DNA of 63,333 bases, the filler included, from Reticulomyxa filosa (Eukaryota > Protista > Foraminifera), in the NCBI GenBank assembly GCA_000512085.1. It is 18 parts of 18 records of this genome, joined end to end, with 100 filler letters (N's around TTAATTAATTAA, not from the genome) between each part and the next. Parts side by side here need not be neighbours in the genome. Positions count along the whole stretch, not along the records: positions 11,687 to 24,353 come from ASPP01012030.1; 17 more parts are not named here. One strand, 5' to 3'. A program made the position numbers and the translations under genes. Below the pieces are notes generated by a model that searched no databases, was not told the DNA's origin, and was given only the letters and a program-made list of their open reading frames with translations. Below, piece by piece: positions 2,994 to 46,642 of the stretch (its first letter is position 1; every line of letters starts with the position of its first letter).

Positions 2994-3420
2994 ATGATTA
3001 TGATAATGATATGATGAAAATTTCACACAATTTACATGACTTGAATGTCCTTTGAATGATTGAATTTGTTTGTTGTTATCAACATCCCATACACGAACTG
3101 TGTTATCACCTGATCCAGAATAAATGAATTGACAATAATCAAGTGTTGAATAATCAATACTCCACACATAACTGGTATGTCCAGTGAATGTATTGATTAA
3201 TTTGGATGATGAACGAAATGTGTCAAATATGAAAACAGTTGCCTATGTTAAATAAGCGTTTAAATATTTTGATTAGTATTTTAAAAAGAAAGAGCAAATG
3301 GACTAACATAATCGACAACGAGTTTATCGAAATCTTCGATCCATCCTAATTGAATGTTTAATGTTGGATCCAATGATGAATAATAATTTGGATCTCTTCT
3401 TCTTCTTTTTCTTTTGACTA
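2994..3420 (-). CDS. WD40-repeat family protein, partial, possibly decayed
   Basis: FTGHTSYVWSIDYS...SGSGDNTVRVWDV...FKGHSSHVNCVKFS, plus an upstream exon IQIIIHHWIQHLNIQLGWIEDFDKLV. Confidence 0.85.
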
Positions 3421-5960: not shown

Positions 5961-7303
5961 TCACGGCAACAAAATTTTTTCCAAAAAGTGAAGTTGCGCT
6001 CTAATATTTTGTTCAAATGATTCCCCAGCATAAACATCAAAATGTCCACAATCCAATAAGGCCATTTCTGCATGCGGTGTTTTCTTAAGCGCATACTGAA
6101 CTCGTTCCATTGGACACAATTTGTCTTTCTTTGCAGCAATATATAAAACTTTTGTGTTTGGAGAAATTTTTTCCACAGATGCAACTGGACGATAAGTCAG
6201 CACATCAAATAAAGGGCGAATCAAAGCTCCGTTTTTCCAATCATTTGGTCGATTTCTTAAGGAAGGATGCAAACAAACAAAAAAAGGATTTATCCATGTT
6301 ATGTTCTTTTTTTTTTTATATATATAAATAAATTGTTAGCAAAAAAAAAAAAAGAACTTGGGATGCTTTTCAAGCCAGCTTTCTTGTGGTTCTCCAATCA
6401 ATTCCCAATAATTCATGGCCAATCGAAAAGGTTGAGTTGATTGGTGGGCATAAATGGGACCATAAATCTCTGGCATGCCAAGCCAATGGCGAATGTTCGC
6501 TGAGATGGATCCAAGCAATCCCAACCCAATGACTTTGAGACCACGTTTTTTCATTTCATCCAACTTACTTTCATGAGGGGTATTACCCATAAATGGAACC
6601 TGCGATATCACCGCTGCTAACGACGGCAAGTCACTTGCTGCTTTTATCACATGTCCACCTCCGTAGCTGATTTTTAAGAATATGTGAAAAAAAATAAAAA
6701 TAAAAAAGATCCACGAATTTTCGGGAATGTGCAATTTTTTTTTTTTTGAAAAAGTGAACCTTTAAATGTATGCATAAAGATTGACTGAACGAACCTTGAG
6801 CCCCATAAAACAATTCTCTTTTTATCAACAAATGACAATGACTGTACATAAGCAACTGCGTTTTTAAAGTCTTGAACATGACGGGTGGGTGACAAGTAAT
6901 GCCTTGGTAAACCTGGCGAACGACCGTAAGTGCGATAGTCGAAAGCCAATACGGCCAATCCTTGATTTGCAAACTTCTCTGCAAATCGCTGCAAACCTTG
7001 ATCTCTTGTGCTTCCAATTCCGTGCCCCATTATTATTATTGGAAACTCCCCTTTTGTATTTTTATATTTTGACTTCTCAGACGCGGGCTCATATAAATCA
7101 CCGCTGCATTGTCCATCCTCTGATGAAAATGTTATACTTTGAAGCTTTACATCTTTGTCCAGTGTAGACACCCACTTTTCTTCTAGCCCTGGCAACTCGG
7201 GCACATTTTCCCAGCCAATATAGAAATAATTTTGTGGCAACCACACCACCAACACATAGCCCGCAATTCCAAGAATAGCTCCAAACCAAAAAAGTGTTTT
7301 CAT
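5961..7303 (-). CDS. Alpha/beta-hydrolase (bacterial CocE/S15/AidA-like) with N-terminal signal or anchor; 3 exons
   Basis: Motifs MGHGIGS and AVLAFDYRTYGRSPG. The spliced nucleophile elbow reads WGS|SYGGGH. Also VISQVPF, acid AKKDKLC and CGHFDVY. Confidence 0.9.
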
Positions 7304-7924
7304 ATTTTTTAACTGTTGAAATTAGGACGAGGAACGTTTACGTTAACGTTTCACTAAACACGAGGGGTTTTCCTCTTTGCTTGCAGCAATAAACTCTTTT
7401 TCTTCGTTAGGAAGTCTTGTTGAAGCCATGAAATTAAATAAATAACGTTAATTCCAGTTTTATTTTTGAAGAATGGAAATCAATTAATACGTCGACTTTT
7501 CTACTTTGACACTTTGATTAAATGTAATAAGATTTGTGGTGTAGGAATAATGGGGGCTTCTTTTACCGTAGTAATTAATGGCACATTCTATTTTACCTTT
7601 TGTGTTGGAATTGACAGTAATTCATTCCAATGATGGATTAATTCGGTACTTTGATGTAGGTGGAGACGAATTCGTAGTGAAGCGTGTGTCTGACACGGGT
7701 CACAACGGGTCGAAGGGACATGGCATTCATATTTTCCATGAAATGTCACAATTTGTTAAGCCGGTATCATTGGAAGAGTTTTTGGTGTATAGTGCGTTTT
7801 GTATCGGCCTTGTGATGATTGGAGGTGATTTTTCTGAGTAATATTGTTTCGCATTGTGACATATACATAAATAAATGAATGTGCATAAAAGCATACATAC
7901 AAAACAAATGAGAAAGGAGAGGAG

Positions 7925-9150: not shown

Positions 9151-9289
9151 TTTTTTTTTTTTTTTTTTTTTTTTTAGTGAAAAGTTTNNNNNNNNNNNNN
9201 NNNNNNNNNNNNNNNNNNNNNNNNNNNNNNNTTAATTAATTAANNNNNNNNNNNNNNNNNNNNNNNNNNNNNNNNNNNNNNNNNNNNAA

Positions 9290-9820
9290 CAAGCCCATTT
9301 GGCGTGTGTCTTATTAATTTTATTGTAATATCGAATTCCAACGATTATTTGTTTGGATTCCCGATTTGCAAAAATTCTATCTTTTTCTTTGTTTGTATCT
9401 AATAACATGACTGCTCGATATTGATAATCAAATACAATTTCATAATCTTTCCATTTTCCATCCTTTAACATGCATATCGTTTTTGGAATATAATATTTTC
9501 TTTTGTATCCATTATTTTTATCAATAAGATAATATTTAACAATACATGATTTGTTGTTAATCAATATTTGATAGCATTTCCAATAACCTTAAGAGTATGA
9601 TATCATTATTGGATAATACTAATTATCATTTCGTTTTTCAAATTTGAAAAAACTTGATCAACATTTCCACATAATTTATGACATTTGGATTTTAAATTAT
9701 TGTACAAATTCTTATCACTTATTTGTTGGTATTTTACATTTTGAGGATATTTTAAAAAATTCCATAAGATGTGTAATCTCATTTTTGTCATTATTTTTGA
9801 TTCATTATCTTCTTTCAATC
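9290..9820 (-). pseudogene. Degenerate member of an expanded family with a PUB-like segment
   Basis: ILWNFLKYPQNVKYQQI resembles the PUB motif. WKDYEIVFDYQYR follows. The frame is broken at ~9570-9610. Confidence 0.5.
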
Positions 9821-9859
9821 TGTCATTTCAAATAGCGACAAGAATTCTTTCTCAACAGT

Positions 9860-11069
9860 AATGCATGTATATATTATTTTGCTTGTCCGCATTTTAATCC
9901 TTCCTATGCAACTTGTGACAAATAATCAATTTCCATTCAGTTTATTTTTTGTTCCATTGCATTTGATCCAATTCCATAACATATAGCATATCAAAAATTT
10001 CTCATACAATTTCGAAATGGATATATTATCGAATCTATTTGTCTCTGGTTTATTTCGAATATCTTTTTTTTTTTCTCTTCATTATCATCATTATCATTAT
10101 TATCTTCTTTTTCTTCTTGTGCTTTAATCATCTGTTATCTTGTGAGATAACAAAACAAACGCAAATACAATGAAATGTGACTCAACAACTTCAAACTCGG
10201 ATTGTCGATCAACATTCGCATCAATATATCTGCTTGATCACAATCCTTTTAATCGTCATCATCACTGTCTCTTGTGACACTTTGAAAGTATGCACAAATA
10301 TACTTTCGATGTCTTGGACTGAAATTCAATGATCTCAATCAGTCTCGCATTTTTCAGATCGATTTGTGACAATGGCACGATAATTTTTGCTTTCAATGCA
10401 ATATCGGAGCCATCGTTTTAATCCAGGATTTTGATTTAATTCGCTTGCAATCGCATCAAATCCATTCAAAATCACCAATCCATTCTTTGAATACACAATT
10501 TTTGTATCATTGGAATTCCACTTTGGAATGTTCAATGCATCCATTACTTTCAACCATTGATTTGTTATATTATCGCTGTCGCTGTCCTTGTCATTGTCAA
10601 ACACATGTGCAATCCTTCCAAATGGAATGTGCAACAGCCACTGAAATTGCATTTCATTCTTTGCCCACAAATATGCAATTACTTGTGTTCTACTTCCTGC
10701 TTTTCCACGAATGCTAATATGACGTATTCTCACTGTTTCTTCGTTCTCTTTTCTTTTCTCTCTTTCTTTGTCCTCAACCCAAAAATCTTGAAATTCTACT
10801 GTTTTCTGTCCACTACCGTAGGTCATGAAATAGTCCAGAGTGTTTAACCATTCTTCCGAGTCTTTCTCTTCTTTTTCCTCTTCAATTGCTTCGTTGTTGT
10901 CTTCCTCGTTATTTGATGTCCACTCACTTTTTTCTGGAAAGTATCTTTGTCTCAAAAGAGTCAAGCGGATGTAACAAATGTCTATAAGTTGGTTGTGATC
11001 ATCAAATAATGAAGCTAGTTTATTCTGAGACTTGCAGTGTTCTTTTAGTTTTTTTATTGTTGGTTCCAA
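9860..11069 (-). pseudogene. NACHT/STAND NTPase pseudogene
   Basis: Eroded Walker A (ISIRGKAGSRT), Walker B (VILNGFDAI), sensor IVTNR, then LLSHISLYLRLFC and ISKLYE..L.CYM.WNW. Stops and frameshifts below 10335. Confidence 0.8.
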
Positions 11070-12813
11070 TTTCTTGCTTCTACTTTTTTTGGAGATATTA
11101 ATGGTTCTTTTGTAAAGTTCCTTTCACAAAATACTTTACCCCTCCGATTATGGATTTTAAGATTGTAGTGAAAATTTTATTTTTTTTTTTGACAAGGATA
11201 AGAGCCTATAAAGAACCCTTTTTAATCACTTTGTGTAAGATTAGTTGCTTATGCACATTTTGAATGAAAAAAATGAAAACGCAAAAATTTGTGCGTCGTT
11301 TTTATCGTTTGGTCTCAATTCCAAGAAAACTACTAATTTATTCAAAATCGAAGTCGATTTTCATTTTTTGCTTTCAGACTGTTTGTTGTTGATAATCAAT
11401 GTGCAATGCATTTGTGCTTGATTTCAAAGACATTTATTTATTTTTTAAAAAAACTTTTGCGATTCTTCAAACATTATATATTTGATTACTAAATTGAATA
11501 AATTTAATTAATAATTATTTTTAAACAATAAAAATAAATTTTCATTTTTAAAGTAAAAAAATCAAAGGGTTTTTTTTTTAAAAAATNNNNNNNNNNNNNN
11601 NNNNNNNNNNNNNNNNNNNNNNNNNNNNNNTTAATTAATTAANNNNNNNNNNNNNNNNNNNNNNNNNNNNNNNNNNNNNNNNNNNNGTAGTTTTTAAATA
11701 TGATATTGATTTTTGAATACCTTTTTTTTATGTTGGAGAAAAATATCATTTGTTCAAATGATTTTTGAAAGTGGAAACACAAAGCATGTTTCCTATATTT
11801 ATCCATTGGTGTTGTGCAAGCGGGATTTGCTTGGCACTTGGTCTGAAAGTCTGCTCTGTCTAAGCCGGAAAAGCAATAATGAACAAAAATCGCGAACGTT
11901 GAAATTTGCTTGTGTGTGTTGAGGAAGCCAGGCGCATGTGGTTATGATATAGCATTGACTAATGTTTGATTTATCATTGCCATTTTATCACGAAACGCGC
12001 TTTGGATACACGATCTTTTGTATAGACTAGTTTGATTTAGAATGAAGGCCCAGTCGACAGTGTTATCGTATGGCTTCGTATTTTTATTGTAGTGAGTTAT
12101 TGATCTTCCACTTCGGACTTTGCGTCACATTCGACGCTTTGAACATATGAATGAATGAACGGTAATTGTTAGATTGCTGTCGTGCGAATGCGATGAGATT
12201 AAGGTAATCTTTCATTTCTTTTTGGCATCAGTATTTCTTTATTTCTCTACATTATAGTCATTTTCTTTAGTTTTTGGTTATTGATTCTTGGTTCCGGCGT
12301 CGAAGCCGCCTTTCTTCTTTTTTTCTGACCATGTGTCTTTTTCTTCTGTCATTCTCTATTTCGATATGGATATGCTGGTCAGTCTGTGATTAATCTCACT
12401 TTCTTTTAATATCTCCACCAGTCAACTGACTACGTATGTGCCAGATAATGATTAAGTGATTTTTTTTAGTAAAATCAAAGCATTAATCTAATATGTTACT
12501 TGTTAAAGTTTTAACAACTTATTCTCATCTTCACAAGTGGCACTTAGTGTTGTAGTTTTTTCTCGAACCTACTGTATGAATTTTTTTTACAGTCATGTTA
12601 TATAGCGCGTGCGGTTATACTTTATTCTGGAACAAGTAATAAGTTTGAAAACTTACTTTACTAAATTTTTTTGTAACGAACGCAAGAGTACACTTCAAGT
12701 TGACTTATTATTTGTTGCCAAGTTTATTGTGGATAAAACCGAAAGAAAAACTAAGTTTTTGTATTTTCATTGCTTCCAACACAACATACTGCAACAAAAT
12801 TTTGCAAGTAAAA

Positions 12814-15800
12814 TTAATCAATATCACTCCAAACCTTCCAATCTAATTCAGAGTTAGTATGACTCTGAAGACCAATCGATGTTTTGATAGTGTCTCTGAG
12901 TGGCTGTGTTAGATAAGATATGCTGAAGTTATAGAATACAGTTTTAATATCTTCGATGGTGATTTTTTCGATATCATCAATTGTATACGCAATCAAGTTC
13001 CTGATGTTTGTTTGTGTTTCTATTTTCTCGTCGTTTGCTTGGTTCAATTCTTTTGTGAGTTCTTCTTTCTTTTGTTTGCATACAGAGAGCTGTTTCTCAC
13101 GAAAGGTTCCACCTGCTCTTTCAGCGATTTAAAATTGTCATAGAAATCGCAATCTTTGTTTGTTATCTCTTCCATTGCAGTATTTTCAAGTAAATGCCCA
13201 ATAAATCGATCGGAACATATAAAATCAGAGATTGGAGAAACAATAGACCTTGAAACAAAGTCGGTAACATTGGACAAAGCAATTTGCATGTTTCCAACCT
13301 TGCCATCGTTTAGATCTTGCATTATCTGCTTCAGTTGTGGAACATGGTATTGTAGATGTGTCAAACTTGCAACGTCCTTGGCAATGGCTTGTTTTAATGC
13401 GTTTCTCATTGGCTCTGTTTTGGAAGAAGCAAGGAGAGAGCGGAGAAAGATAGAAATGAAGCATTTGTCCCTTTCTTGTGCCAGCACTTGCAAAAATGCG
13501 AGCAAATACTCGCAATCGTTATTTCTTTCAATGGCAAAGAAATTGTTGAGGTACGATATTATCTTCACTTCCAATTCTTGCTCCACCGTGAGGAAAATGG
13601 TCTCTTCGACACGTTTATAGAGTTCGTGTCTGCTTTGTAAGACCTGGCATCGTTGAAACATCCGCTTGGATTTCGAAAAAGAGGATTGCGAACACCATTT
13701 AGCAATGTCCTCCCAATCAGCTGACTCTTCCTTACTGTCCTCCAAACTCGATTGAACATCGACGTCGTGATACGTATACGTGTTCAAATCTCTTGTCGAC
13801 GTAACGCAGGTGGAAATGTACAACTCGTTTGCTTTAGCCTTTGCAAACGATAGAAGTGGTCCTGTGATAGAGGTCATGTTACATACTTTTGTGATTATGC
13901 TTACTAAGCTGTCAGGATGATGTTGCCTTTCCATCAATGTCACCAAATCGATTGATAACTGTAAATATTTCAACGAGTTTGCGTCGATTGTTTGTGGGAG
14001 CAATCTCAGGACATATCCAAGAGCATGATAGATAGCCGTATCTTTTTTGTCCAAAGCCTGTTGAGCGCAAAGAAGCGAATGGAGGCAGTGAACAGCTTGT
14101 TCATTTATCGTCGTCGATGGAAGATGAATCACCGCAATTAGGGAAATTAATTGAGAAAATCCCTTCAACCAACCCTTATTGCGAATGATGGATACAATTT
14201 CGACCGCCTCACGGATGTGACGCAGAGTCTTGTCAGAGTGCACCAACACCAAATGTGGCAACTCCAAAATGTATTTCAAAGTAAGAACATGACTGTTCAT
14301 GCCCGTATGCATGGCTCTTGTTTTTTCGCATATCTTTTGGATCTTGGACACCAATGTGTCCCTTTGAACTTGCGAGATTTGCTTTTTCACAATCGGCTCA
14401 AGACAGTCGTATACGTCATTGCTATTTCCGTGTTCAAGTGCATTCCACATGGCAAGTGCAGTTTCGAACACCTGTTTCTGTCCAAATGTGCAAGCTGCTT
14501 CGTCGAGAACAAGATCGAGAATTCGTCGGTATGATTCGAGGAAAATGCAGCTGTCGCTTTTGTTGAGAATTTCGACCACCGTTTGACATTTGAGCACGTG
14601 TTGCAAGACACATTGAATGTCCACGTTTGCAAACACTGCCAGTTTTCGTAAGCATTTCAATACGTCTTTTTCTTTTTGTAAATGTCGAACAAGTTTGACT
14701 CCAGAACAAATGCGTTCCATTGCACATCCCACGATTCGTTTCTTCCTTTTGTCTTGAATCGACTCTAACGAATAGTGTAGTCTTTGTTCGTCATTCATGT
14801 CTTCCCATGCTTTGACATTGCTATTGTCTCCGCCTTTGCTGTCGTTCTGACACGACCATGTGTGACTCAAGGTCATGGGACTCAAGGTCATGGGACTCAA
14901 GGTCATGTGACTCAAGGTCATGTGACTCAAGGTCATGTGACTCAAGGTCATGGGCTTGATCACCGATTTCAAGTCCAAGTCTAATGGCCGAGATGCGCTC
15001 CAATTCGAAGAAAGACACGTACCAAGTGAGGCCGGACTTGGCAGTAGGGAAGTCAGAGATCCCACAACCGAGTCTAAATTGCACAGTTTCAAAACGATAT
15101 CATAGACTCGCTTCCAACTGCATTCATTGTTCACAGCATCGACCAGATCACTCGCAACTTGCAAGTACTTGGATAACTTGCTCGCTCCATTTTGCGGCAG
15201 TAAACCGAACATGCACGAGACAGCCCGCGCTCGTTGTCCGTTGTTCAACAGTCCTTGGATGGAAAGAAGAGAATAGATCCGATTTACAACATCCTCCTGC
15301 AAGGAAGAGCCCTTTTCTGTTTGTTTGATCATTGAGACTAGCTGTTGCAACATCTTGGGGAAATCTCTGTTGTGTGCGTTAGATATGATTTCGATGGTCT
15401 GATATGCAATGCGCATCTGGGCTTGCTCTTCGAGGGTAGCCATTGAGAGCTGGAACACACTCAAAATGCTATGCAGCACGTCGAGAGTGGATGTTTGTGT
15501 TCGTGTGGCACTGGCCATTATCTCTTCAATCTTTGCAATTAGCTGCTGTTTGTCGTTTGCAAGAAAGCACTTGTTCGGAGCGATATTCTGCAGACAGTAG
15601 TATACGTCCTGACTGTTTGCACTTTGGAGTGCCTTCCACAGTGGCAGACACTTTTGAAAACTGTTTACAAGGTGGAATTCGAAGACAAAGAAGAAAAAGA
15701 AGAAGAAGAAAGAAGCAATTGTAGTAATTGCTCGTAAGATTGTAATTGCAAAGGTGCAGTTTGGAAAGATGTGATAAGATCATAACATTTGGACAAACTT

Positions 15801-18800
15801 TGCCAAACGTTGGGTATGTTCACATTAGCAAACGCGAAAAAATGCTTCAGACAATCCAAGAGGTCTTTGGTCTGGAGACACCGTACGACGGTAATGCCGC
15901 GGACAATGTACTGAATCGAATCCGAGATGATGTTCTTTTGCCACGAGCTGCCCAGCAGATCTTGCACAGCCTCCAGAATTTTAGCGTAGTCTCTGTCGCG
16001 AATGGCTTGGACCAACTGCGAAGATTGGAAAATCTTTTTCACGGCGGTGTATGCGCTCTTGAACTTGTCGTAGATTTCGAGACAAGCGTCGAGGAACGGG
16101 ACCGGGAGAAAGCGCACGAACGTAGCAAGCAAGCCTCGCCAACCGTCTTTGAGACCATTGAAGAGTACCCCAAATGTGGCCTCTAGCACGTCTTCCTTCA
16201 GGAATTTTCCAAAGTCACTAAACTCGCCGTGGATCATTCCCTTAACACCTTTGACCACTGACTTGATGCCAAGGAAAATGAACGACAATCCGAACGTGCC
16301 ACCTGTCATCATCATGCATGCCACGCCCACTGCAATTTGACATGCACCGATGATAGCAGCAAAGAGGCCTGCCAAAAACCCTTCAATTCGCCACTGAGTT
16401 TTTTGGTCGGATATTTCAAAGCAGCCAATCAGTCCACATTGGGTTAAATACGACGTTACACCTTCAAATTCTTTGTGCTGTCCCAAAATGTCCGACCTTT
16501 CATCCAGCAATTCCTTCCACTTCACGAGCTTGCATTTCAAAAAGTACATCGGACGGTGTTGCAAGGAATTCTGGACAAACTCCAAAGCTTTTTCGCACTG
16601 GCTCTGTACTAGCTTCCACAACTCCGCTTCGAACAAAAACATCTCCCTCAAATTGTGTTGACTATTGCCGTCATCTTCATGATCAGACGTCGAACGTGCA
16701 AGGTAATGTCCATTTGTGCACATGTTTTGAATCACATTGATGCGCTGTAGTTCTATCTCGATGAATCCTGCCGCACTGTGCAATTCTTGGATTGTCTCCT
16801 GCTTGCACTTCTGACGTTTGTCTTCGCTATCTGTCCCACCGTTTTCAATAGTTTTCTGCACACGCCAGTAGGCTGGAATAAAGGAATGTGGACTCAGCTG
16901 CGCCCTGGCATTGTCCAGCATGTGCAATTGGTCGTCGACAGAAGCGCCATTATCGCTGTTGGCTTGTATGGCAGACCAAGTGAGCAAATGGGGGTTAAAG
17001 CAGAGTCGATACGAGTTGGTCGTCAGTTCGGACAATACTTGTCGCTCAAATTGTTCGAATGCGTCATCCGCACCCTTACAGTCGTCGTCGTCGTCGTCGT
17101 CGTCGCAACGGCGAAATATCTTTTGACACACCACAGACCAATGATAGTGAATCATGTCAATCACGGCAGATGTCATTATGCGCTTATCTTTATACGTACC
17201 AACAATGAGTTGGTCGAGCATTTCCAAATACTTATTGAAATATCTCTCTTTTTTTTTTCTTTATTCAGACGAGTGGTAATTTGATTCAAATTTTGTGCGC
17301 TGCGCCAATCCCGCGACTTTCGGATCTCGTCAATGTTGCATCCCTGGTATCGTGCATTTTCCATTTCTTTGTTCACAATGAGAATACACGATCCAGGATC
17401 GGTGGATCGAGCGCTCCGTCCAATGTTTTGCGCTTCGATCCTCCCATTCTCTGGCAGGAACGTTACGATAACGTGCAGTCCGCCCATGCGCTTAACGTAT
17501 TCTTGCAATTGCACGTCCGTGCCTCTTCCTGCAAGATTCGTAGCAACAATTACGTCTCCCTTTGCAAACTTGTTTTGCATCAATCCAACCTGCTGACTGT
17601 TGTCGCTACGTGAGTATACGTATATCTCTCCATTGCGCAGATGTTTCCTCAGTCTGACTGTTTCCTTGCGCAGTCTGCGGGCGATTTTATCTGTCGTTTT
17701 GATGTCCTCGGTGATAATGAGGACCACTTTTTCTTTTTTCATTTGTACGAATACGTTGACACAAATGGACTGGAGCCACTCGCATTCGTTAGTGCACAGC
17801 ACGTCAGTATAAAACATCTTTGTCTTTGTGGCAAACGACGGGATCTTTAGGATGTGAGCGTCAAAGTGCTGCGTGTAATATTCCATTTCTTTGGTGCCAC
17901 CCAACGTCCCCGTCAATCCAAAGACCTTTCCACCTGTCACGTACTTGCGATAAAAAGTAAAGTTAGTGATCATCTGCGCTACGCTGCCGAGCACAGTCAT
18001 CTTTTTCCTGTGCTTGAGCTGCAGACATTGATGGAGTCCATTCGAATACACCGTCTTTTCTTGCACCGTCCCAACGTCCTTGGACATGGGCACGATCTCG
18101 TTGTTTCGAATGATGTAGTCTTTGTCCGCACTGTGCAAGAACGCGGCCTTCCACGCAGATTCGACCCACTCGTCGAGCTGTCCATCGATCAATGGCTTTA
18201 GAAACTGCTGCGAAATACCGAGTGCATCGGGAGAAAAGTCAGAGACGTTGCCGTTGACGGCATCCATAATGTATTTCTTCACGTCGTCGACAATTTTCTG
18301 TTTGATATTGCGAGCGCAGTGCATTTGCACAACCTTGCGCTCTTCAGGATAGTGCAGTAACACCATGGAACACTGTGAGAGATCGGGGATCTCGTCAAAC
18401 TTTTTCCCTTCGCGAAAGTGCTTTACGAACACGCCTTTGCACGGACAGGTTGCGATTTGGAGTCACTCTGTTCCTCCCTTCTTTCGAATAGAGCCACATT
18501 CAAGTTGAGCATGATCGGATGCGAAATGAGTTCCACCAATGCGTCCATGGATAGATTTGCAAGCTTTTCTTTGACGGTGTCCACACTCGATAGCGTACAT
18601 TCGTCGAACCCCAAATGCAACAGAATGTGACCTTTGCGTGATTCACTGCCGCTGTGCAGCCACGCCTGCAGTGCCATGTTGGACACGTTGTCCAACCAGT
18701 TGCCTACTGTGTCTCCTTGCTTTGACAACACATACATTAAATTGCACTCCTTCACGTCCTTTAGAGCCATCCACATGTCACACTTGATCTGAACTACCAT

Positions 18801-20360
18801 GTCGCTCAATGACGACACGAGAAGCATCATACGCGTATACGTCATGCCGAGGATGCAGTTCAGCGGTGCATAGCCAGCTGCCGGTCTCGTCAGCTGCGTC
18901 GCGCCAAAGATGGTGTCGATGAAGCCGTAGTCACACTCATCGACAATCGCGACACTGTGTGGACGACCACTGGCAGCGCGTACGTTGTTTTCCGTTGCCT
19001 TGATATTGTGCTCCGAGTCTTGCTCGTGCAGCATGTCGCACTCGTAACCGTACGCTGTCGAAAATGCACGTCCATGTTTCTATACGGTCCTGCGTGCTCT
19101 AGCTTTGGATTCTTGACATTCGGGTCGATATATCCACATGACAGACCGCCACACATGCCGAGCCATGCATTTGTTTTTTCGTCGCTGGCTTCGCGCTGTG
19201 CTAACAGCGATTGCGATGTAATCACGTCTACGCGCTCGCCAAAATATAAGCGCTCGATAATCGTTAGAAATATTACAATCACTGATTTGCCTTCGCCGGT
19301 GCCCACTTGAAACAACACGTTACTTTTTTTTGTTTGTTTTGTTTTGTTTTGCGAACAACGGAACGCTGCAAATACCACCAGCACCTGCGCTAATCGTGGA
19401 GGGTACGTATACGTCCACTCCATTCCCAGTGCCACCATTGCAAACAGCTCGTGCACAAAATGCTTTGTCTTTTCTTTCTCTTCGCATGTCATGTGCAAGC
19501 ATTGCTCACAAAAGCGAGTCACGTCTTCTCTGCTTCGTGATCTGCGACACTTGTCGAGCATGTGTTCGTACGACAATAGGTCTTGACGTAGCTCCTCGAT
19601 ATTTATAAAAGAGTGACAACTCGGATTTAAGTTTTGCAATTCGGATATTAGCTCTGTCAATGTTCTCGCACGGCCCTGAGGCCAGGTAACGGGGTTGATT
19701 TGTCCAAATTTCAGACACTCGTCGAACAATCCTTCTAACATCTGGCATCTCGTCGTTACATTCCATTCGAGACGACGGGCTTGCTTTTTTTCGCTTGGTG
19801 TCATATCATGGCCACTTCGCATGGCCTGGACTTGATGCTGTCGACTTTGAAACTTTACCAACAATTCTCTATAATCATTTTTTGCCCAATTTGGTGTCAC
19901 TCTGTTTTTTCTCCTACGAGCTATGGACGCAATTACAAAAAGAACTGGCTCTGAAAGTAGCTCTCGCAGGGAACGACAGATTCGTGCTTTTTTTGTTGTG
20001 GATCCCATTTTGTTGAAAATGCATTGCAGTGGGTCACACAAACGCTTTGAGTTGTTCTTTTCGTCCAATTGCGCCACTTGGATATGCAGGCCTCTCATCA
20101 ACATTAATGCAACCAAGTCAAGTAAGTGCAAGATTCTGTTCTGTCTTGGGAGTCTTCTCATTGCAAGGGCTCGCTCTGCGATCACTTTATCGCTTTGCTG
20201 GTCTTGACCGTAATCACATAGGCAAGACACAACGAACGGACAAACTCCAGCTGCATTGAGGATACTCAGTCCATTTGCGATCTCATGAACAAATCTCTAT
20301 GTGATAGGCAATGGCCATTTTCTTTTAGTACTTCCAATAGGTGGCTTAAAATCACTCTCA
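12814..20360 (-). CDS. Giant (~2,500 aa) SecA-like SF2 ATPase protein, apparently intronless, interrupted by about six -1 frame breaks (recoded, young pseudogene or sequencing indels)
   Basis: SecA motifs in order across the pieces: QVGTGEGKS; VDVITSQSLLAQRE; DVHF/STAYGYECD; AIVDECD; DKDYIIRNNEIV...YSNGLHQCLQLKH; ITNFTFYRKY...GLTGTLG; VIVATNLAGRGTD; GGLHVIVTFLPENGRIEAQNIGRSAR..DPGS. Then a hydrophobic hairpin and helical repeats. Confidence 0.88.
14861..14950. repeat. Coding minisatellite, 6 x 15 bp TG(T/G)GACTCAAGGTCA, encoding (MTLSH/P)6
   Basis: Six tandem units read directly. In frame within the 824-aa ORF. Confidence 0.97.
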
Positions 20361-21544
20361 TTTGTTTCGTCGAATGTTGAGGTGGCTCCTTTCTTTATTT
20401 GTCCTTTGGTCAATAAATTCAGACTCTTAATGTCTTCAATCAAGGAAGAATTACTAAAATTATCTTGTGCTAAAGTAAACGTTTATTTATTTGCATACGG
20501 CTAAAAAGAACCGACGTGAACTTTAACCCTCTTTTCTGGCTCGTTTTCGTGGAGTCGTGTGGTACATAGCAAAAAATTCGATGTCGCTACGTTTTCATCT
20601 TTCCATAGATCTTTTACAGAATAATGGTACAACTTGTAATAGATAAAATTTGTCTCTTTTTGTCCTCTGAATACTTAGCAATGTTAATTTTTATTTATTA
20701 TTTAAACTCATTTAGCGTGTTGAATCTCAGCGTAATCAAAAGAAAAAGACACTTTTTTTCTTAGTTTTCACATGTTTACTTGTTGTATAATCTTTTTAAT
20801 AATCTTTAAAAATTTTCAAATTGAATATCTTGTGTTTAGTTCTAAGGGAGCTGTAGAACTCCAATTGGGCTAAACTCTTTTACAAAACCAACATTCTAAC
20901 TCACTTTTTTTCTTGTTTTTGTTTCTCATTTTGTTTTCTTCTTAATTTAACTTTTGTTTTATTTTGAAATTAGCTCAAAAGAGCTGTTTCCTTTCGTATT
21001 ACACTTGTCTGGTGCAAAGTAGCTGACATTACTCTCCCTACAGGTGTTCCTTAAAATTAGTTTGTTGCTCAGTTTTCTCTGTAATTGAAATTTTGTCTTT
21101 ACATTTTTTATAAACAAGAAGCTTCCTAAAAAAGCAAAAAACTAGCAGTCAGCAATAAATACCTAAAAATTTAAATTACATATACTGTTATACACTTTAA
21201 GTGAAAGATTTCAATTTTTGAAAAAATTTCGAATGACGGAATGCGATATTTAACAATAACACAATTTGTAGATATTTTTGATCACAAAGAAGTGTGTAGT
21301 GCAATAAAACAAGGTAATAAGAAATTGAGTTTGCACTTAAATGTAGAGGTAAAAACTTGAAAATGTTGAAGTTTTACTGAAACAAACAGAAAGTCTGCAC
21401 AGATTGAAAACTTTGTAGCAAGAACACAATGAGCAAACAAAAGTTCACAACTTTTGAAAAAACAAAGGGCAAGAAAATATTAGGCTTTGTGAAAAAAAAA
21501 ATAATAATTAGCTTTGCAACAGAAGAAAAAGAAGGTTGGAGAAC

Positions 21545-22647
21545 ATGGCATCAAAAGACCATTTGCACGACGAATCAGCGAGCTTAGTTCATCGACATTT
21601 AGGCGGCTTTGATTTTGGACTGGCACACAGAAATGCAGAGCTGATGAAGAAGGGAATGGAACAGCCGAAATACACGAAGACAGGAACGACAATTGTGGGA
21701 CTGGTATTCAAAGACGGGGTAGTGTTGGGAGCAGACACGCGTGCGACAGCAGATACAATTGTCGCGCAAAAGAATTGTGAGAAAATTCATTACATTGCGC
21801 CAAACATTTACTGTTGCGGAGCTGGGACGGCTGCCGACACAGAGAGCGTGACAGAGATGATATCCTCTCAACTCGCATTGATGCGTCTGGACACAAATAC
21901 ACAGTCACGCGTCATCTGCGCATTGACCCGCCTGAAGCGCTATTTGTTCCGCTACATGGGATATGTCTCCGCCGCACTGGTATTGGGCGGCGTGGACTGC
22001 AATGGTCCGCATTTGCACACCGTGTGGCCACACGGCAGCACCGAGACCCTGCCCTATGTCACCATGGGCAGTGGTTCGTTGGCGGCCATGGCTATATTCG
22101 AGGCCGAGTTCAAACCAAATATGCAGGTATGTATGTGTATAATAACAACAATAATAATAATAATAAATAATTATATATATATAAATAATTATATATATAT
22201 ATAATTATTTATATATATAATTATTTATTATTATTATTATTATTATTGTTAATTTGTCAGGAAGAGGAAGCCAAAGAACTTGTGAAACAAGCCATTCTCA
22301 GTGGCATCAACAACGACTTGGGAAGTGGAAGCAATGTCGATTTGTGCGTCATCACCAAAGACAAAACACAATTTTTAAGAAATATCTTCAAAACTGAAAT
22401 TCCTCAAAAAAAAATTCACCAAATCAAATATCCCCATGGAACTACTGGTACCGCTTTCTTTCTCTGTTTGCTTCCCCCCCCACTCTCTTTGTTCCACTTG
22501 CTTTCAGACTCACTCACATACACACCTTGTTCAGTTGTCCTCAGACGTGAAGTGGTGTTACATGGCGAAGAAGATGAAAAAAAAGAGGAATGGTGCGAAC
22601 CTGAAGAAAGGGTCCAAAAGGCTTTAGAGCGCATCGATGCTGACTGA
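21545..22647 (+). CDS. PSMB7: 20S proteasome subunit beta-2 (trypsin-like), 3 exons
   Basis: Propeptide then KTG|[46 protein letters not shown] and [10 protein letters not shown]. Introns 22127-22260 and 22448-22534. Confidence 0.97.
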
Positions 22648-24610
22648 TTTGGTTTTTTTTTCCCAACTAGTTGTTCTTTTACATAAAAAAATAAAAGAAA
22701 AGAACTGGTTAAAAAAAAAAAGGGAACAATATTCAAAGATTTTTTGTGCTCTGTTTTCATGGATGCAGTTATACCGAGACTTGAACTTTCACCCTTTTTA
22801 CTGATCTGTCAATGGAAAGGTAACACAATTTTCAACCGCTTCAATTTTCAATGCAAGACTTTAAAGCACAAGAAAATTAAATACAACCTCTTTGATTCGT
22901 TTCACTTTTAAGGATTGGTGTTACTTTTGCATTTTACTTGGAAAAAATTTTCTTAATGGCAAAATTCCTTGGAAAAAGTAAAAATCTTTAGCAAATTCGT
23001 GTGGAAAAGATATCAACTACAATAAATTGCTTGTATTGATTGTAAGTGTGACTTGTCCATTTGTAAAAACACATGCAAAAGAACAAGGGGTACCGCTACA
23101 TTAATGAAAAAACGGTCTAGTTCATTTTATTGTCTAAAAACCATTTATCATTAATTATTTCCTTCAGAATCGGTCAATTTCGTATATTAAAAAAGTCTGG
23201 TCTTGTCACAAAAAACTAGAAAATACGCACTTAAAAAGCGTCGTTTCAAAATTTTTTTTTTATGTTTGAAAAAGAATACAGTTTTCAAAAGGCAATCAGA
23301 CTTTGTTACTGTTGTAACTCAAATGTGACATAAATTTTCTTTACGGAAAACGTAATTGGTTGACTTTAAAAACACAACTAGTTAAAGTTGAGACCGTGAC
23401 GTTGTGCATTCCTTGATTATGCACGGAACTACTTTCACAGTGGAAAGCTACCTTGTGTGAGCTTGAAGATGATCTTATTACAGAACTATTATAAAAAATG
23501 TTGTACTACTTGCCTAATATTGAGGCATTCCATTTTCTTCAAAGCAAATTGATATTATTCTATTTGTCCATCTATGAACTTTAGCAGGAGGAAAAAAGAA
23601 AAAAGCTTTGACTAGAGACAAACTATTTGACGTGGTTATATCTTATGCTGAATTCAAAGTTTTCAAGAAGCAAAAGAAAAGGACAGCCAAAATATTATCT
23701 CTTTGCTGGTTTATTAGTAAATCCAGAAGCCTAAGCGTAACAAAAAGTGCAAAAATCTTTTTCATGCATGGATAGCCGTGACATGCGTGTATTATGTTAT
23801 TTATTTATGAATAGAAAGCAAGAATGATATTTCTGTAGTTTTCATATTTTTTAAATGTTTTTATGCATAAGACGTTAATCTAATCTTATTTATGTAATAA
23901 ATTTTCTAAGCCTTCATTAGCGTGTACACTGCGTTCTCTCATTGTACTTGTTTTGTTATCTCGTATTTAGTTGTTTTATTAAAAGAACACTATACAATGG
24001 TATTTTTGTCGATTAAATATATCCTTCTTATCTGATGTGATTGCTTCCAATAATCCTATTTTCACATTAAAAATTTAAATAATTTTAGATTGTCTTATTT
24101 ATCTTGTTTATATGCTAAAATTAGATTAAAATAAATGCAAAGAAAGTGTGCAAGTTATTATGATCTCTTTTTTGAGGCACAAGTAATTCATTTACAAATA
24201 TTACTTAAAGAAAATTACATAAAAACAAATATAAAAGTAACCAAAGGCCATTAAATCAAAAAAGGGGTAAAATAATTTTAAATTTTCAAAATTAGATGGA
24301 AAAACACCAAAACAACATTTAAAAAGTGCGCAAAAATTTGAAAAAGTTGCTAGNNNNNNNNNNNNNNNNNNNNNNNNNNNNNNNNNNNNNNNNNNNNTTA
24401 ATTAATTAANNNNNNNNNNNNNNNNNNNNNNNNNNNNNNNNNNNNNNNNNNNNTTATTATTATTGTTATTAATATGCTCATCATCATTATCATTATCATT
24501 ATCATCATTTCCATCATTATCATTATTGTTTGTATTTTTCTTTTTGTTATTATTTGTGATTTTGATTTGCTCATTCTTAGCATGGCCATTGTTACGTGCA
24601 TATTGTTGCT

Positions 24611-26266
24611 TTATTTTATCTCCTTTTCTTTTTCTTTTTCTTTTTCTTTTTCTTCTTGTTCGTCTTGTTCTTGTTTGGACTCACTATTTTCTTCGAGAGA
24701 TTTGATTTCGTGCAGCTTTTTCAGAGCGATTGCTTTTTGATGCTCTTTCAGCACGTAGAAACACAGACTGTCCAATTGCAAAAACTGTTCCAACGCGCTG
24801 TGTAGCGCACGCCCAAAGCTTTTAAACGTGGGCAGCTGCGACACCGTTACCAGCACGTCAAAGTTGATATAGCCGTTTTGATTCGCGTGCAAAAACACCG
24901 TGCGAACGCTCTCATTCGAGTACTGGTTCGGTGGCACCGGGGCTGGTCCACTGTTCTCGTAATCATTGTCCGCACGTTTCTCATCTGATTCTTTTGGTTT
25001 CGATCGAGACCGAGTTAAAGACAGTGACCTATTTGCATTTTATTATTATTATTATTTTTTTTTTTTTTTTGCACAAATGATTTTAAAAAAAAAAAACACA
25101 CCTTTTCAAACGCTGAATCGCAGATTGCTCTTTGTCATCATCAGCAAAGTCGTCGATGGCAGCAACGTCGGAAGTGTCGGGGTCAACATCATTGGAGATG
25201 CTGTTAAGGTTGAAGTTGAAGGGGCCCAAAGAGGGCGAGTTGTTGCAAGCGGCGTGACTGAGCTTGTGTTTGGGAGCGCCGACGTCGCAGTAGACGATGG
25301 GTATGTCATTGAGGAATTTGGTGGACGCCATGTGACTCATGGCGAGCAAGGACAGCTGGTCGTATCCGATCAAAGACGTGGCCCGAGGGAGGTCGCCATG
25401 CGTGCGAGAGTTCAGTTCGATCAAGCAAGTGGCATCTTCGATCGGTAGATACATCACTTCCATGTGCGCACATCCATTGGATACTCCAAGCAACGTCATC
25501 ACCTCAAACACATACTCGATCACACGTCGACATTGGTAATTGTTCCAAGACGAGTTGGGTGCCGTCACGAGTTCTTGGTAGTCATATCGAAAGCTGTAAG
25601 GTAAGTCTTGTTGTGTCGATAATAGATTTACAGTTTCGTTTGTATTTGTATTTGTATTTGTATTTGTATTTGTATTTGTATTTGCATTTACATTTACATT
25701 TACATTTACATTTACATTTACATTTGTATTCGTATTCATATTCGTATTTGTAATGCTCGCAGATAAGGCTCGATCTGCGTACATAGTTTTGTTGGCATAC
25801 CACATGTCGGTACATTTGTGAACACCCTGAACGGACACACAATTAACAACGTATTCGAACCCATGCAGATATTCCATGATTAGCAATGCCTCGTTCACGT
25901 CGCATTCCAAGTTGGTGGCGTGCAAGTACTTGTCAACGACAGTGCACAGGCCCTTGAACGTGTACACCAGGCGCACTCCTTCCGTGCCCGCACTCGTCAG
26001 CGGCTTCACCACCACCGGGAACGACAGTCCGTGCTTCCCGAGCGTATGCGCGCACTCGGACTCGTCCGCAAACACCCGGCTCAGTTCAAAGTGCTTCGCA
26101 AATCGCACATTTTTTTTGCCCATTGTTGCACGTCGCTCTTCTCATTATCGCCATTGGTTTGAGTTTGAGATTGAGATTGAGATTGAGATTGAGTTTGAGA
26201 TGATGATAGTGATTGAGACTGTGATTGTAGTTGCGACTTTTGATACTGAGGATTTGTTTTATCCCT
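24611..26266 (-). CDS. ATP-grasp ligase (L-amino-acid ligase/carnosine-synthase-like) with low-complexity inserts; partial
   Basis: FPVVVKPLTSAGTEGV, IMEYLHGFEYVVN and GCAHMEVM...CLIELNSRTHG. Downstream exon contains VRTVFL. One -1 break at the A8 run near 26110-26117. Confidence 0.85.
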
Positions 26267-28971: not shown

Positions 28972-29312
28972 ATGAAAAATCATTGAAAATGAACTTGGAT
29001 AAATTGGGACCTGATCACATTGATGTTGCTAATTCATACAACAATTTAGCATCAGTTTATTGTTGCAAAAAAGAATATGACAAAGCGATGGAATTTGGAA
29101 AGAAAGCATTGGATTTGAGATTGAAGAAATTGGATTCTAATCATCCACATGTTGGCGATACATATGGTATTTTAGGATATATCAATTATAAAAAAGGTAA
29201 CAAAATGGAGGCAAAGAAGTTTTATGAAAATGCATTGTCGATTTATACTCAAAAATTGGGTAAAAATAACCAAAGGACACAAAATGTGATACTTGCATTG
29301 AAGAAATTGTAA
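28972..29312 (+). CDS. TPR (kinesin-light-chain-type) repeat protein, 3' end
   Basis: LGPDHIDVANSYNNLASVY...YDKAMEFGKKALDLR...HPHVGDTYGILG...AKKFYENALSIY. Confidence 0.9.
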
Positions 29313-40586: not shown

Positions 40587-41237
40587 TTAAAAAAAGGTTA
40601 TATCAAGTTCATCTTGTTTATTTTTATCATATCCATTACCAAAACGATTGCATATATTTGCAATCCAAGGATGATTAATCCCAAAATTATGTAAAGATAT
40701 TTTTAATGCCTTATTATAGCATTCAATTTTTTTATCCCATTCTTCACATATAATTCCTAAAAAAGTATATGAATCTGCGACAAAAGAATGATTTGAACCA
40801 AAATTATCAATACAAATTTGTAAATGTTGTTGTGCATAAATTAATGCATTATCAAAAAGATTTTCTTGTAGACATTGCTTTTTTTTATCTTCGAGATCTT
40901 GTAATAATACAGGAATGTGATAATGTATTTTCATATTCCATTGAATAGATACAATTAATTGTTTCAATTCTTGTTGATTAATTATTGCTTTTTGTGTAAC
41001 AAATGTCTGATTTGTAATTTGTACATTTTCTTGTAATTTAATTTTACAGTTGACAACATATATATTTCCATCGATAATTATACCACTATCCAATATTATT
41101 AATTTTCTTTTTATTAAATATATCCAATAATCTTCAATTTGTTTTTTTGCAATATTATTATCATTTATTAATGTATAAAATAAATTCTTATTTGCATTCG
41201 GATGTATTTTATTTTTCCATTCAGAAGTGTTGTTCAT
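40587..41237 (-). CDS. TPR-containing family protein, truncated or possibly pseudogene
   Basis: FDNALIYAQQHLQICIDNFGSNHSFVADSYTFLG...IECYNKALKISLHNFGINHPWIA. Confidence 0.7.
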   Translation of the reverse strand: MNNTSEWKNKIHPNANKNLFYTLINDNNIAKKQIEDYWIYLIKRKLIILDSGIIIDGNIYVVNCKIKLQENVQITNQTFVTQKAIINQQELKQLIVSIQWNMKIHYHIPVLLQDLEDKKKQCLQENLFDNALIYAQQHLQICIDNFGSNHSFVADSYTFLGIICEEWDKKIECYNKALKISLHNFGINHPWIANICNRFGNGYDKNKQDELDITFF

Positions 41238-42579
41238 TTTTTTCCATCATTNNNNNNNNNNNNNNNNNNNNNNNNNNNNNNNNNNNNNNNNNNNNTTAAT
41301 TAATTAANNNNNNNNNNNNNNNNNNNNNNNNNNNNNNNNNNNNNNNNNNNNTTTTTTTTTTTTTTGCACTGTGTGATTGAATATATTCTTAAAAAAAAAA
41401 AAAAAAAAGGGGGGGGAGCAAAAAGGAGGAAAAAAGATTAAAAATTTGTCCAGCTGTTTTTTTTTAATATTGTTTGTTTTCTTTCTCTTTGCACCATTGG
41501 TTGGTTGCTGCCTTGGAGGGTTGTCCATTTGATATGGTACATCTATTTTCATAATTATGATGTTTTATATCTTTTTTTAGGGGCACAAGGCGTAGAGAAT
41601 TAGCGCAAACAAAAATTGTTTGTTGCCATACCACGAGACTGTTGCAAGCTTCGATTCCGGCTCTGTTTTTAATTGACAAGATTCAGTTTTTACTAACTTT
41701 TTAAAAAGCTGTAAGCACAGCCAAACATACCGAGGCAGCCCTTGGAGATGAAACGTTAAGCTCATCATACTGTTTGTTTCCTGAGTCTGGACGATAATAT
41801 TGGGACATTACCACTGCTTCGAGTTGGTAGACTTTTTTTCGTTGCAAACTGAACACTTGCAGAGTAACGGTATACTTTTCTCGTTATGCCATATTTTTTG
41901 TTTGCAAGTAGTTGATTTTTGGTCCTGCGTCAATATATAAAAATGTAACTACTTGCTTTCTGAAACAATTCTTTTTTGTACGTATTCAGCAAATTTAATC
42001 CGAATGATGTGTGTTTAGAAATATTAATACCTTAATATATGTTAGCATGTGTTGCACATAATCTATCTTTAAAACTATTTATGATCTTGTTGAACAACAA
42101 TTTACTAGTACAGGTAGTTGTGGAGAAAAAAAACTATCTGCTTTCGAAAAGAACTATCGACAACACTCGTCGTTTTTGTAAATTTACAGTTGGACATTGT
42201 TTCAAGTTATAATTTAAAACATTTGTTATGTTGCTACAAACATTAACAATTGTTGTCGTTTGTTGTGGTTATACCCTCAATTACAACAAGTTGAAAAAGA
42301 AGATTTTTAATATTGTTTGATGCAAAAAAATGTTGAAGAAAAAAAAGAAAAATTGAAAATTGTGGGAGATCCAAAATAATGGACACTCAATATTTTTAAA
42401 CGAAGCCTTTTTGGCCACGAGAGTTTTGCCTGAAAAGGCAATTAATTTGATTGGTTTTTTTATTTTAAAAAANNNNNNNNNNNNNNNNNNNNNNNNNNNN
42501 NNNNNNNNNNNNNNNNTTAATTAATTAANNNNNNNNNNNNNNNNNNNNNNNNNNNNNNNNNNNNNNNNNNNNGATTAAG

Positions 42580-43672: not shown

Positions 43673-44064
43673 GAATCCCTCTCAAAAAAAAAAAAACTGG
43701 GTTGTGACTGCTCTTCAAATTTGACTTCGATGTCTTCTGGAATAACATTGGTCAAGTCAGATTCACTTTTGTACGTGATATGTGCGAAAGTTTGCTCGGT
43801 CGTTTCTTGGTCCGTTGCTGGCGCGTCACTGTCATAGACGCTGCCGAACTCATTGATCACCATCGAATCGGAACGATAATTGCCATCTGCATTTTCTGCT
43901 TCTTCATTCTCGTCCCTAGGAGGGACTATCTCTTTTATGAGGTTTTCAAATGGATCTGCCGGCTCGCTGCGCTCTTCCGTCTCTTCTGTTTCACTCATCT
44001 CCACGGCTCCATCTTCCACTATCAATCCGTCGTTTTCATCTTCCTCCACGTCGCCCTGGGACAT
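43673..44064 (-). CDS. Acidic hypothetical protein, first exon
   Basis: Higher-GC open frame MSQGDVEEDE... running to the contig end. Confidence 0.55.
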
Positions 44065-44711
44065 TCCAACAATTCCCTTTTTGCTTTCAAGTATTTGTTT
44101 AGCCTCTTAAACAATTATTCCTGCTAGCTAAATAAATTGATTTGTTTAACGCATCAATGGATAATATAATCCTTCTAAAAGGGGATTAGCTTTTTTTATT
44201 TAAAAAAAAACCTAATTGAAGTCTTCTTACAGTGACAAAATTTCAAAAAAATATTTTGCTGATTTGTGGAACTGTATTTTTTATTAATATTAGGTTTCAG
44301 TTTTTTCTAACATTGTATTATTTATAAATTTCCTTTTTTTTTTTTTGTCATATAAAAATATACTCGACAATAAGGGTAAGATAGGCCAAAAAAAATATGG
44401 AAACAGCGCAGACAGAAAAAAAACGAAAAGAAAATCGTCATTACATATTTTTATTTTTGAAAAGGTAGCCTTGAACAATCCCATTAAACTCGAAAATCCA
44501 TCCAATATCGCTCAATTCAGCCGTGCGCATCCAATATTGAACAATGGACTTGATTTCAAAAATTGTCCACTGAGCAAAAAAGAAAAAAAAAACGAATACA
44601 AAGTAATTGTATATTATGCAAAGAAATAGATAACATAAAATGAATATATATTATATGTGATCCATTTATGTTTTGTAATAGAAAAACAAAGAATTTGAAA
44701 TCGAGTAAAAA

Positions 44712-45713
44712 TTAAAAAAAAAGAATAACTCCAGTCAAATCTTTAGCATGAACAACAAAGTGGTTGGCTTGGTTGTCAAAGTCAGAGTTTCTGCCACCAA
44801 TGAGATGAACGGAGGAAAGGGTTGAGTCGGCAATAGCAGTATTACGATAGAGTAGCAAAGGGAGATGAGACAAAGATCGGGACCAGAATTTGCGAGAAAT
44901 ATCGAGAGTGAAAATGACATTTAAAATATTGTCATCAACAAAATTCCAGCCTCCAAAAATCAATAATTGGCTTTGAAACAAGACATAAGAGTAAATCCAA
45001 CAAAGGGAAAAAGGGCTCAAAGGCCAAAAGTCATAACTGAATTTGTTTTGTTGTTGATTGAATCGAATGGAAATACAATTGTTTTGACTAACCAATAGAA
45101 ACTCATTACAACCTATCGACACAAAACAATGAAACTCCAACGTATTAGTAATCGAAAGAGGCACCGTGTTGTTTTGTACACGTTTCAAAGGCGTCCATGT
45201 CTGCATTGACAGCACGTCAATCTTATTCGGATAGCGTGTCACAAACAACAAGTCATTGTGTAATCCACTGACAACTCCTCGACAACCTTGCAAGTTTATC
45301 GAGCTTTGGCCATTCGCCTCATTGGTGGTGTCCATTATTGGTGTCCATTCGTTTCGTGTGGATGCTGTTGTACTCTTCCTTTCATTCCACACACTTTCGT
45401 ACTCCATTTGCAACGGCTTGTGCTTCAAACTTGACACCCCAAATGATATCAATGTGAATGTGTCTTCTGTTGAAGACCGTGGCGGACATAACACTACTGT
45501 GTGCCCTCCCAATGTCGCATCGTTCGGATATGAACACACCAATTTGTACTCACGCTTTCCCAAATGGTAGGAATAACAGTTTCTGCTGTTGCTGCCCCCA
45601 CAAATTAACAATTCATCATCCAAGGAAACACAAGCAGGAAGATCCAATGCACTGGGCAAGTCGGGTAGCATCTCATGGTGAAGTATTGATGAAGGGGATT
45701 TTATTCCATCCAT
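44712..45713 (-). CDS. Kelch-type beta-propeller of an expanded family
   Basis: CVSLDDELLICGG..SRNCYSYH...YKLVCSYP...LGGHTVV, LLIFGGWN and VHLIGG. Confidence 0.85.
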   Translation of the reverse strand: MDGIKSPSSILHHEMLPDLPSALDLPACVSLDDELLICGGSNSRNCYSYHLGKREYKLVCSYPNDATLGGHTVVLCPPRSSTEDTFTLISFGVSSLKHKPLQMEYESVWNERKSTTASTRNEWTPIMDTTNEANGQSSINLQGCRGVVSGLHNDLLFVTRYPNKIDVLSMQTWTPLKRVQNNTVPLSITNTLEFHCFVSIGCNEFLLVSQNNCISIRFNQQQNKFSYDFWPLSPFSLCWIYSYVLFQSQLLIFGGWNFVDDNILNVIFTLDISRKFWSRSLSHLPLLLYRNTAIADSTLSSVHLIGGRNSDFDNQANHFVVHAKDLTGVILFF

Positions 45714-46642
45714 AACCTTTCTTTCTCAGAAAACACAAACTTGGAAAAAAACTGCGAAGAACGAACTGTTGTTGTTTCATGATTCTCCAGAAGAGATAAT
45801 TTTAACAGTTTTGTTGCTGGTGTCTGCCATTGAGAATGGAACATGCAACCAAATTTATCTTTTATGCTAGCAAAAAGCTCGGACAAACAAGAATTGTTAT
45901 TAACATAAACAATTGTCAACTTTTTTCATTGCAATTAAATTTTTGACAACAAAACACATCTGTTAGCAAAATTTCTTTTTTTAAGATAGAAATATTACAA
46001 AAAAGTAAAAAAAAAAAAGTGTTACAGATGTGCTTATTAATAATACTTTGTACTAATGAAAATATGTTAAAATAAAAATCAGATAATATAATTTAAGTGT
46101 TAACAAAAATATGGTTGTCATGAAATAAAATAATTTTTAAATTATGTTTAAACTTAAATGTTTTTTTGCAATTTTGTCACACTTTTTATTATTGGATTTT
46201 TCTTGTAATGGCAGATATTTTGACATATAAAAAAACTGAAATTACTAGTATATTTGAACAATTATGTTGCATTTTCATTTAATACAAAAATATTGATTGA
46301 ATAATAAGAATATACTTAAAATAATACTATCTAAAAATTAATATTGAATTGATCTGATATACTTATGAAAAAAATGAAATCTTGTCTTCATTTCAGAAAA
46401 CAAATCAAAACAAAGACGCCAGCCCATTTTTTCGATTCTTGGAAAATTATCATTTCACGCTCTCATTCAGCAGCACGTAAGATCAGTTGAAAACAAACTT
46501 GTACTCGAAAAGGGGAGACAAAAATTTTTGTGCTATAATAAACAGGATCGTTTATTGAAAGATTCTGTTTTGTAAAAGAAAAAGAAGTGCGAATGTGTTG
46601 CATTTTTTTTTGTCTCGAGAATGGGACATAATTTCAAAAATA

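Follow-up and report, generated by a model that had tools for sequence, protein, structure and literature searches.

Giant SecA-like ATPases, which carry the Pfam families PF07517, PF01043 and PF21090, are annotated in rotifers, fish, beetles, nematodes, Glomeromycota, Tetrahymena and some intracellular bacteria, and title listings of the literature yielded no functional study of the eukaryote-type members. Their genes mostly consist of one long exon, as at 64 of 80 listed loci. In contrast, the member described here, from the foraminiferan Reticulomyxa filosa, is interrupted by five frame breaks. It lies on a 12,667-nucleotide (nt) contig (11687..24353) within the window, the whole stretch of 63,333 nt that was analyzed, and its predicted product is a giant eukaryote-type SecA-like ATPase of ~2,500 residues with the SecA_DEAD, cross-linking and P-loop_SecA domains in order. 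The breaks, J1 to J5, are each −1 modulo 3. On balance, we favor the reading that they are real small insertions or deletions (indels) in a recently inactivated copy of the gene, i.e., a young pseudogene, with error in the assembly as a close runner-up.

The gene occupies ~7.5 kb of the minus strand, to which all of its coordinates below refer, as six stop-free reading-frame pieces, A to F, in frames 2, 1, 0, 2, 1 and 0. Piece A (18893..20296; frame 2, coding to ~19065) holds the N-terminal region and the start of SecA_DEAD (PF07517), with Walker A at 19303-19283. Piece B (18426..19079; frame 1) follows with the Walker B motif DECD (18941-18930) and a subfamily insertion in common with the relative P0003/P0245. 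The cross-linking domain and the second RecA lobe (PF01043 and PF21090) are in piece C (17179..18462; frame 0), along with motif III (17913-17899), motif V (17544-17515) and motif VI (17430-17407). Piece D (15668..17260; frame 2) covers the post-motor helical region and contains a poly-Asp microsatellite (17105-17081), a hydrophobic Gly-rich segment (16381-16247) and the start of the first copy of an internal repeat. The C-terminal region is formed by piece E (13047..15779; frame 1, 911 codons), with an in-frame tandem repeat of 6.1 copies of a 15-nt unit (14864..14954), and by piece F (12817..13128; frame 0), which runs to the final TAA at 12816-12814.

These six pieces are one gene of ~2,500 codons, because stretches of homology and open frame carry across from each piece to the next. 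A family profile, for which 71 of 88 eukaryote-type homologues were used, matches A, B, C and D consecutively; D corresponds to profile positions 702-1078 (97 bits) and is matched by P0037, P0043, P0045, P0047, P0068 and P0088. The relative P0245/P0003 joins A to B and B to C; the one-frame alignment of P0245 extends from ~20280 across J1 and J2 as far as the end of C, which also rules out hidden compensating shifts within piece A. The internal repeat of ~215 residues (copy 1, 15327..15976; copy 2, 14136..14768) bridges D and E across J4, and the frame of F runs on without a stop for 75 codons after E ends (chance ~0.002), where a coding model changes frame. Between 20296 and 12817 there are zero in-frame stops in ~2,495 codons. 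A preliminary description of this DNA had claimed that the frame breaks all go in the −1 direction, that no other nonsense codon interrupts ~7 kb and that the ATPase motifs look intact; the first claim holds for the five breaks, and the other two agree with the uninterrupted frame and with the presence of Walker A, DExD and motifs III, V and VI.

The R. filosa protein has the same domain order and motifs as the giant SecA-like ATPases, at 26-37% identity over the motor, and its post-motor region and Gly-rich hydrophobic segment match their family profile. Within the family it forms a divergent subfamily, closest to P0003/P0245; this relative is found on metagenome contigs and has subfamily insertions in common with the foraminiferan gene. 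The C-terminal ~900 residues, with their duplicated unit, differ from the rest in that relatives were not found. For piece E, only its own gene model and three matches to its tandem repeat turned up (Atlas matches all <0.9), and no relatives of piece D were seen among proteins of 903-2575 residues. A second R. filosa member of the family was absent from the best 120 of 667 and the best 120 of 176 matches.

The family profile also matches solved SecA structures (E ~1e-83), and the motifs listed above are those of bacterial and plastid SecA and of SecA2. Nevertheless, the R. filosa protein is about three times longer than these proteins. NCBIfam SecA models score its pieces, scanned separately, at 69-138 bits against cut-offs of 725-1493 (the best score is 138 bits against a cut-off of 862), and the wing/scaffold domain SecA_SW (PF07516) and SEC-C (PF02810) are absent from pieces A to F at E<=0.01 in Pfam. 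We infer from this comparison that the protein is neither a canonical SecA or SecA2 nor the Sec translocase itself. Its domain set suggests that the intact ancestor was likely an ATP-driven machine pulling polypeptides as SecA does.

To place the breaks, every possible position was scored with a neutral X against the profile, and a 1-nt gap was compared with a GT-AG intron. J1 (A to B) falls in 19058..19069, with its best position at 19067-19064, adjoining a T4 run at 19064-19061; a 1-nt gap here scores 126.5 bits in the profile scan versus 115.2 for the best GT-AG intron. J3 (C to D; 17239..17262) coincides with an A10 run at 17258-17249, the longest run in the gene (best position 17259-17251), and the best 1-nt gap scores 211.8 bits, with the best GT-AG intron 18 bits lower. 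J2 (B to C; 18426..18462) can be narrowed to a 37-nt window in which the longest run is 3 nt, and J5 (E to F; 13047..13128) to an 82-nt window in which it is 4 nt. J4 (D to E), scanned against repeat copy 2, is placed at 15677..15701, inside a TCT microsatellite (15715-15681) and within an overlap window 112 nt wide. Repeat copy 1 is 5 residues longer than copy 2, so the break is explained equally well by a net gain of 14 nt and by the loss of 1 nt. Runs of the length seen at each break are present in 12% (J1), 84% (J2), 0.2% (J3), 34% (J4) and 70% (J5) of gene windows of equal size. The earlier proposal that each break could be repaired by one extra base in a run is weak: it fits J1, beside the T4 run, and J3, in the A10 run, but the windows of J2, J4 and J5 are wide and their runs ordinary. 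Similarly, the internal repeat does cross from D to E, as had been proposed in confirmation of J4, but it favors the loss of 1 nt no more than the net gain of 14 nt.

A sixth −1 break had been suggested at ~20292, at the upstream end of piece A. At this point there is an in-frame TAG (20297..20299), a candidate nonsense codon that could alternatively mark the end of an intron or the supposed sixth break. Beyond it, a stop-free stretch of 61 codons in the frame of piece A (20300..20482; chance 0.007) is probably upstream coding sequence, versus 33 open codons (chance 0.07) in the frame that a sixth break would call for. Homology backs neither; reading the TAG as nonsense is no worse a fit than a −1 break, and we do not count the latter among the breaks.

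For comparison, we surveyed 80 listed related loci from metagenomes, ranked on piece C; these relatives are ~30% identical, and none is a foraminiferan orthologue. The core is unbroken in one frame at 64 of them (8 of which are read with the ciliate code). A change of frame occurs at 8, in-frame stops or tiny in-frame gaps occur at 7, and the last one contains a second partial copy. The frame-changing loci comprise three that fit a 1-nt surplus (+1), two that are clearly introns, two that are uncertainly so and one that was not modeled. Four of the seven loci with stops or gaps look like one genotype. The same two in-frame interruptions, with 18-30 nt between stop-free pieces, are present in the SecA-like genes of loci L066, L068, L070 and L071, reflecting either a shared pseudogene or very short introns.

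If the R. filosa copy is a young pseudogene, selection would have lapsed before lesions arose by ordinary replication slippage in a short T run, in the A10 run and in the TCT microsatellite, and the TAG at 20299 may be a first nonsense change. Neutral DNA shows a deletion bias, and the shared direction of the lesions would come from this bias and chance. Five of five breaks in one direction have P=0.06 without bias; on the assumption that −1 breaks make up 67-80% of the total, P is 0.14-0.33. The shared −1 direction is weak evidence. Real lesions are favored because 28 of the 30 runs of at least 5 bases in the gene lie outside any break, including an A8 and two A7 runs in regions kept in frame by homology, while three breaks sit in windows with runs of at most 4 bases. 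Under a length-dependent miscall model with weight n^6, the observed run pattern has P=0.06. An A9 run in the PSMB7 gene on the same contig is likewise in frame. The control coding sequence in the window, ~8.0 kb by rough coordinates, from six genes read by eye and two taken as single open reading frames (ORFs), has zero such breaks (P=0.027 if errors are uniform), in agreement with the earlier statement that DDX6, a kinase and PSMB7 are free of them. The microsatellite expansions within coding regions (poly-Asp and TCT) were also counted for decay, as were the candidate TAG at 20299, a second gene in the window that looks decayed (9288-11586) and the broken relatives, namely the three listed loci that best fit a 1-nt surplus and the seven with in-frame stops or tiny gaps. 

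Several observations weigh against decay, and many of these would be expected if the gene were intact in the organism and the breaks were single-base consensus errors in a thinly covered stretch of a draft assembly. The zero stops in ~2,495 codons have P of 0.54, 0.21 and 0.04 at assumed substitution-to-indel ratios of 2, 5 and 10. The gene retains intact catalytic motifs, and many of its 17 departures from the family at 86 conserved columns are shared with the closest relative (P0003 has 16 departures). One break is on the gene's longest run, where the A10 break alone could be a sequencing miscall, and at J1 and J3 the best fit is a 1-nt gap located in a run or next to one. Miscall weights of n^3 to n^4, plausible under thin coverage, fit the run pattern equally well (P 0.93-0.66), so only a steep dependence on run length is disfavored. 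The control comparison is overstated, since the SecA-like gene was chosen for being broken, and the TAG at 20299-20297 may be other than a nonsense codon. Third-position GC is 0.57-0.66 in pieces B to D, which also agrees with an intact gene. The assembly itself is a fragmented draft of 50,809 scaffolds with an N50 of 3,609, according to a table in PMC13746701. Consensus error is nonetheless at odds with the unbroken A8, A7 and A9 runs and with the ~8 kb of unbroken control sequence. A nonsense codon at 20299 would be a substitution, and J4 has surplus rather than missing length relative to repeat copy 2. Internal A/T runs of up to 30 nt in the window suggest that the consensus does not come from pyrosequencing alone. 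We therefore see assembly error as a serious, though less probable, alternative to a young pseudogene, and both of the plainer explanations offered in the preliminary description, young decay and under-calling in the assembly, are supported in that order.

The breaks could also be short spliced introns of length 3n+2 that leave the mRNA in frame, a reading that we regard as very unlikely. The GenBank model P0001 bridges J3 with a 44-nt GT-AG intron (17188..17231), at J4 a GT-AG candidate of 26 nt reaches a score of 221 versus 220 for a 1-nt gap, and a 32-nt GT-AG stretch would fit within J2. Yet the best intron is 11 bits worse at J1 and 18 bits worse at J3 against the family profile, and the annotated intron is 25 bits worse (187.0 bits versus 211.8 for the best 1-nt gap). 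The 44-nt stretch encodes residues that match a family motif. Introns of the lengths in question are also short for this genome, where six clear introns in the window are ~85-147 nt and the species mean is 87 nt in the table of PMC13746701. Exactly those 44 nt are omitted by one depth-2 contig in each of X1 and X2, two runs of one study labelled as a synthetic metagenome (share 0.05). Each run has 3 contigs on the contig bearing the gene, of 155-218 nt and identical to the assembly; one covers 12943-13101 but extends <31 letters past the A4 run on one side, and it was not counted as bridging J5. X1 has no match on 43673-48848. At face value, the omission of the 44 nt would speak for splicing at J3. 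However, X1 and X2 were probably simulated from gene models, given that they are labelled synthetic, have a depth of 2 and reproduce the annotation exactly.

Known recoding systems include −1 heptamer sites, A-run slippage as in dnaX, the +1 frameshifts of Euplotes and the mitochondrial insertions of Physarum, and transcriptional slippage takes an A or T run of about 8 or more. The preliminary description raised the possibility that the DNA is correct as assembled and that the gene is expressed by systematic −1 ribosomal frameshifting, transcriptional slippage or insertion editing of a single base at each break. All five breaks are indeed −1 modulo 3 and stop-free in between, and J3 resembles an A-run slip site, its A10 run including a strict slippery heptamer; positive support is this one A10 run and nothing beyond. 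Across the five junctions there is no common signal, stimulatory structure or conserved position. The strict X XXY YYZ heptamer is found at J3 only among the five junctions, while 5 other in-frame heptamers in the gene are unbroken; a long A/T run (~8 or more) is again found only at J3, and the gene's other three A runs of 7-8 bases show no break. No stable downstream fold was found in 6 segments of 72 nt at the five junctions, which are no stabler than shuffled sequence (z +0.93 to −1.13, pseudoknots not included). None of the 80 listed loci breaks at the profile position of J1, J2 or J3, the clear 1-nt breaks among them run the opposite way, and the closest relative, P0003/P0245, is open across J1 and J2. 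Control genes in the window need no such correction, and if each of five serial steps worked at 10-30%, the yield of full-length product would be 1e-5 to 2e-3. A conserved frameshift in the mitochondrial cox1 of miliolid foraminifera has been read as possible editing in the accounts of that gene in PMC8589990 and PMC10127745, but this precedent is mitochondrial and conserved across species. Literature searches for Rhizaria found no nuclear recoding system of this sort. If a foraminiferan nuclear gene were expressed through five successive −1 corrections, made either by inserting bases into its mRNA or by frameshifts that have no slippery signal in common, this would be a way of expressing nuclear genes that is new for foraminifera; it is the least probable of the readings considered here, and we do not uphold the proposal.

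With the young pseudogene as the preferred reading, the gene as it stands is of little consequence: it is broken or mis-assembled and belongs to a family that is widespread and annotated, though apparently unstudied. What is gained in practice is an improved gene model. The GenBank annotation of R. filosa splits the gene into separate models and spans J3 with a predicted intron that is disfavored by homology: its models ETO20998.1 (P0001) and the 824-residue P0121 are identical to C+D and most of E. Here, these become one gene of ~2,500 codons.

The window consists of 18 contigs joined by 17 artificial spacers of 100 nt each (44 N, a 12-nt all-frame stop linker and 44 N), examples being those at 11587-11686 and 24354-24453, which flank the contig of the SecA-like gene. 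Since the spacers are artificial and the contigs unrelated, gene neighborhood across them carries no meaning. The PSMB7-like proteasome beta subunit gene (21545-22647, plus strand; two introns, intact, with the A9 run in frame) is on the same contig as the SecA-like gene, as had been stated, but DDX6 and the kinase are on other contigs. The SecA-like gene (14000-20000) has 45-48% GC, the rest of the window mostly 21-38%, and third-position GC is 0.58 in PSMB7, 0.43 in DDX6 and 0.39 in the kinase.

An ATP-grasp ligase gene on the minus strand (25086-26141) resembles bacterial plasmid ATP-grasp proteins (31-42% over ~80-100 residues) and has no match in a scan of genome contigs. A possible −1 break at its A8 run (26117-26110), which would have favored assembly error in the SecA-like gene, was dropped because the upstream frame adds nothing: against 10 plasmid homologues, the score is 75.4 bits without a 1-nt gap and <=75.2 with one. 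The sequence upstream of this run is likelier to be the end of an intron, and an in-frame Asn/Thr/Val microsatellite stretch at ~25770-25640 in the same gene may also be an intron. A Pfam scan of 142 more ORF pieces gave 4 weak matches and no usable further controls for frame breaks. The minus strand at 9288-11586 carries a 262-codon ORF (11123-10338) without a Pfam match, after which come short pieces interrupted by stops and a shift of frame; this gene looks decayed. Genes or fragments with Pfam matches (alpha/beta hydrolase, Kelch propeller, RhoGEF-PH, TPR and WD40) lie on the minus strand at 5964-7321, 44715-45725, 425-1051, 40590-41246 and 2994-3242, and on the plus strand at 28972-29309. 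The plus strand also has a stop-free stretch of 415 codons at 47009-48253, with hydrophobic segments and without a Pfam match.

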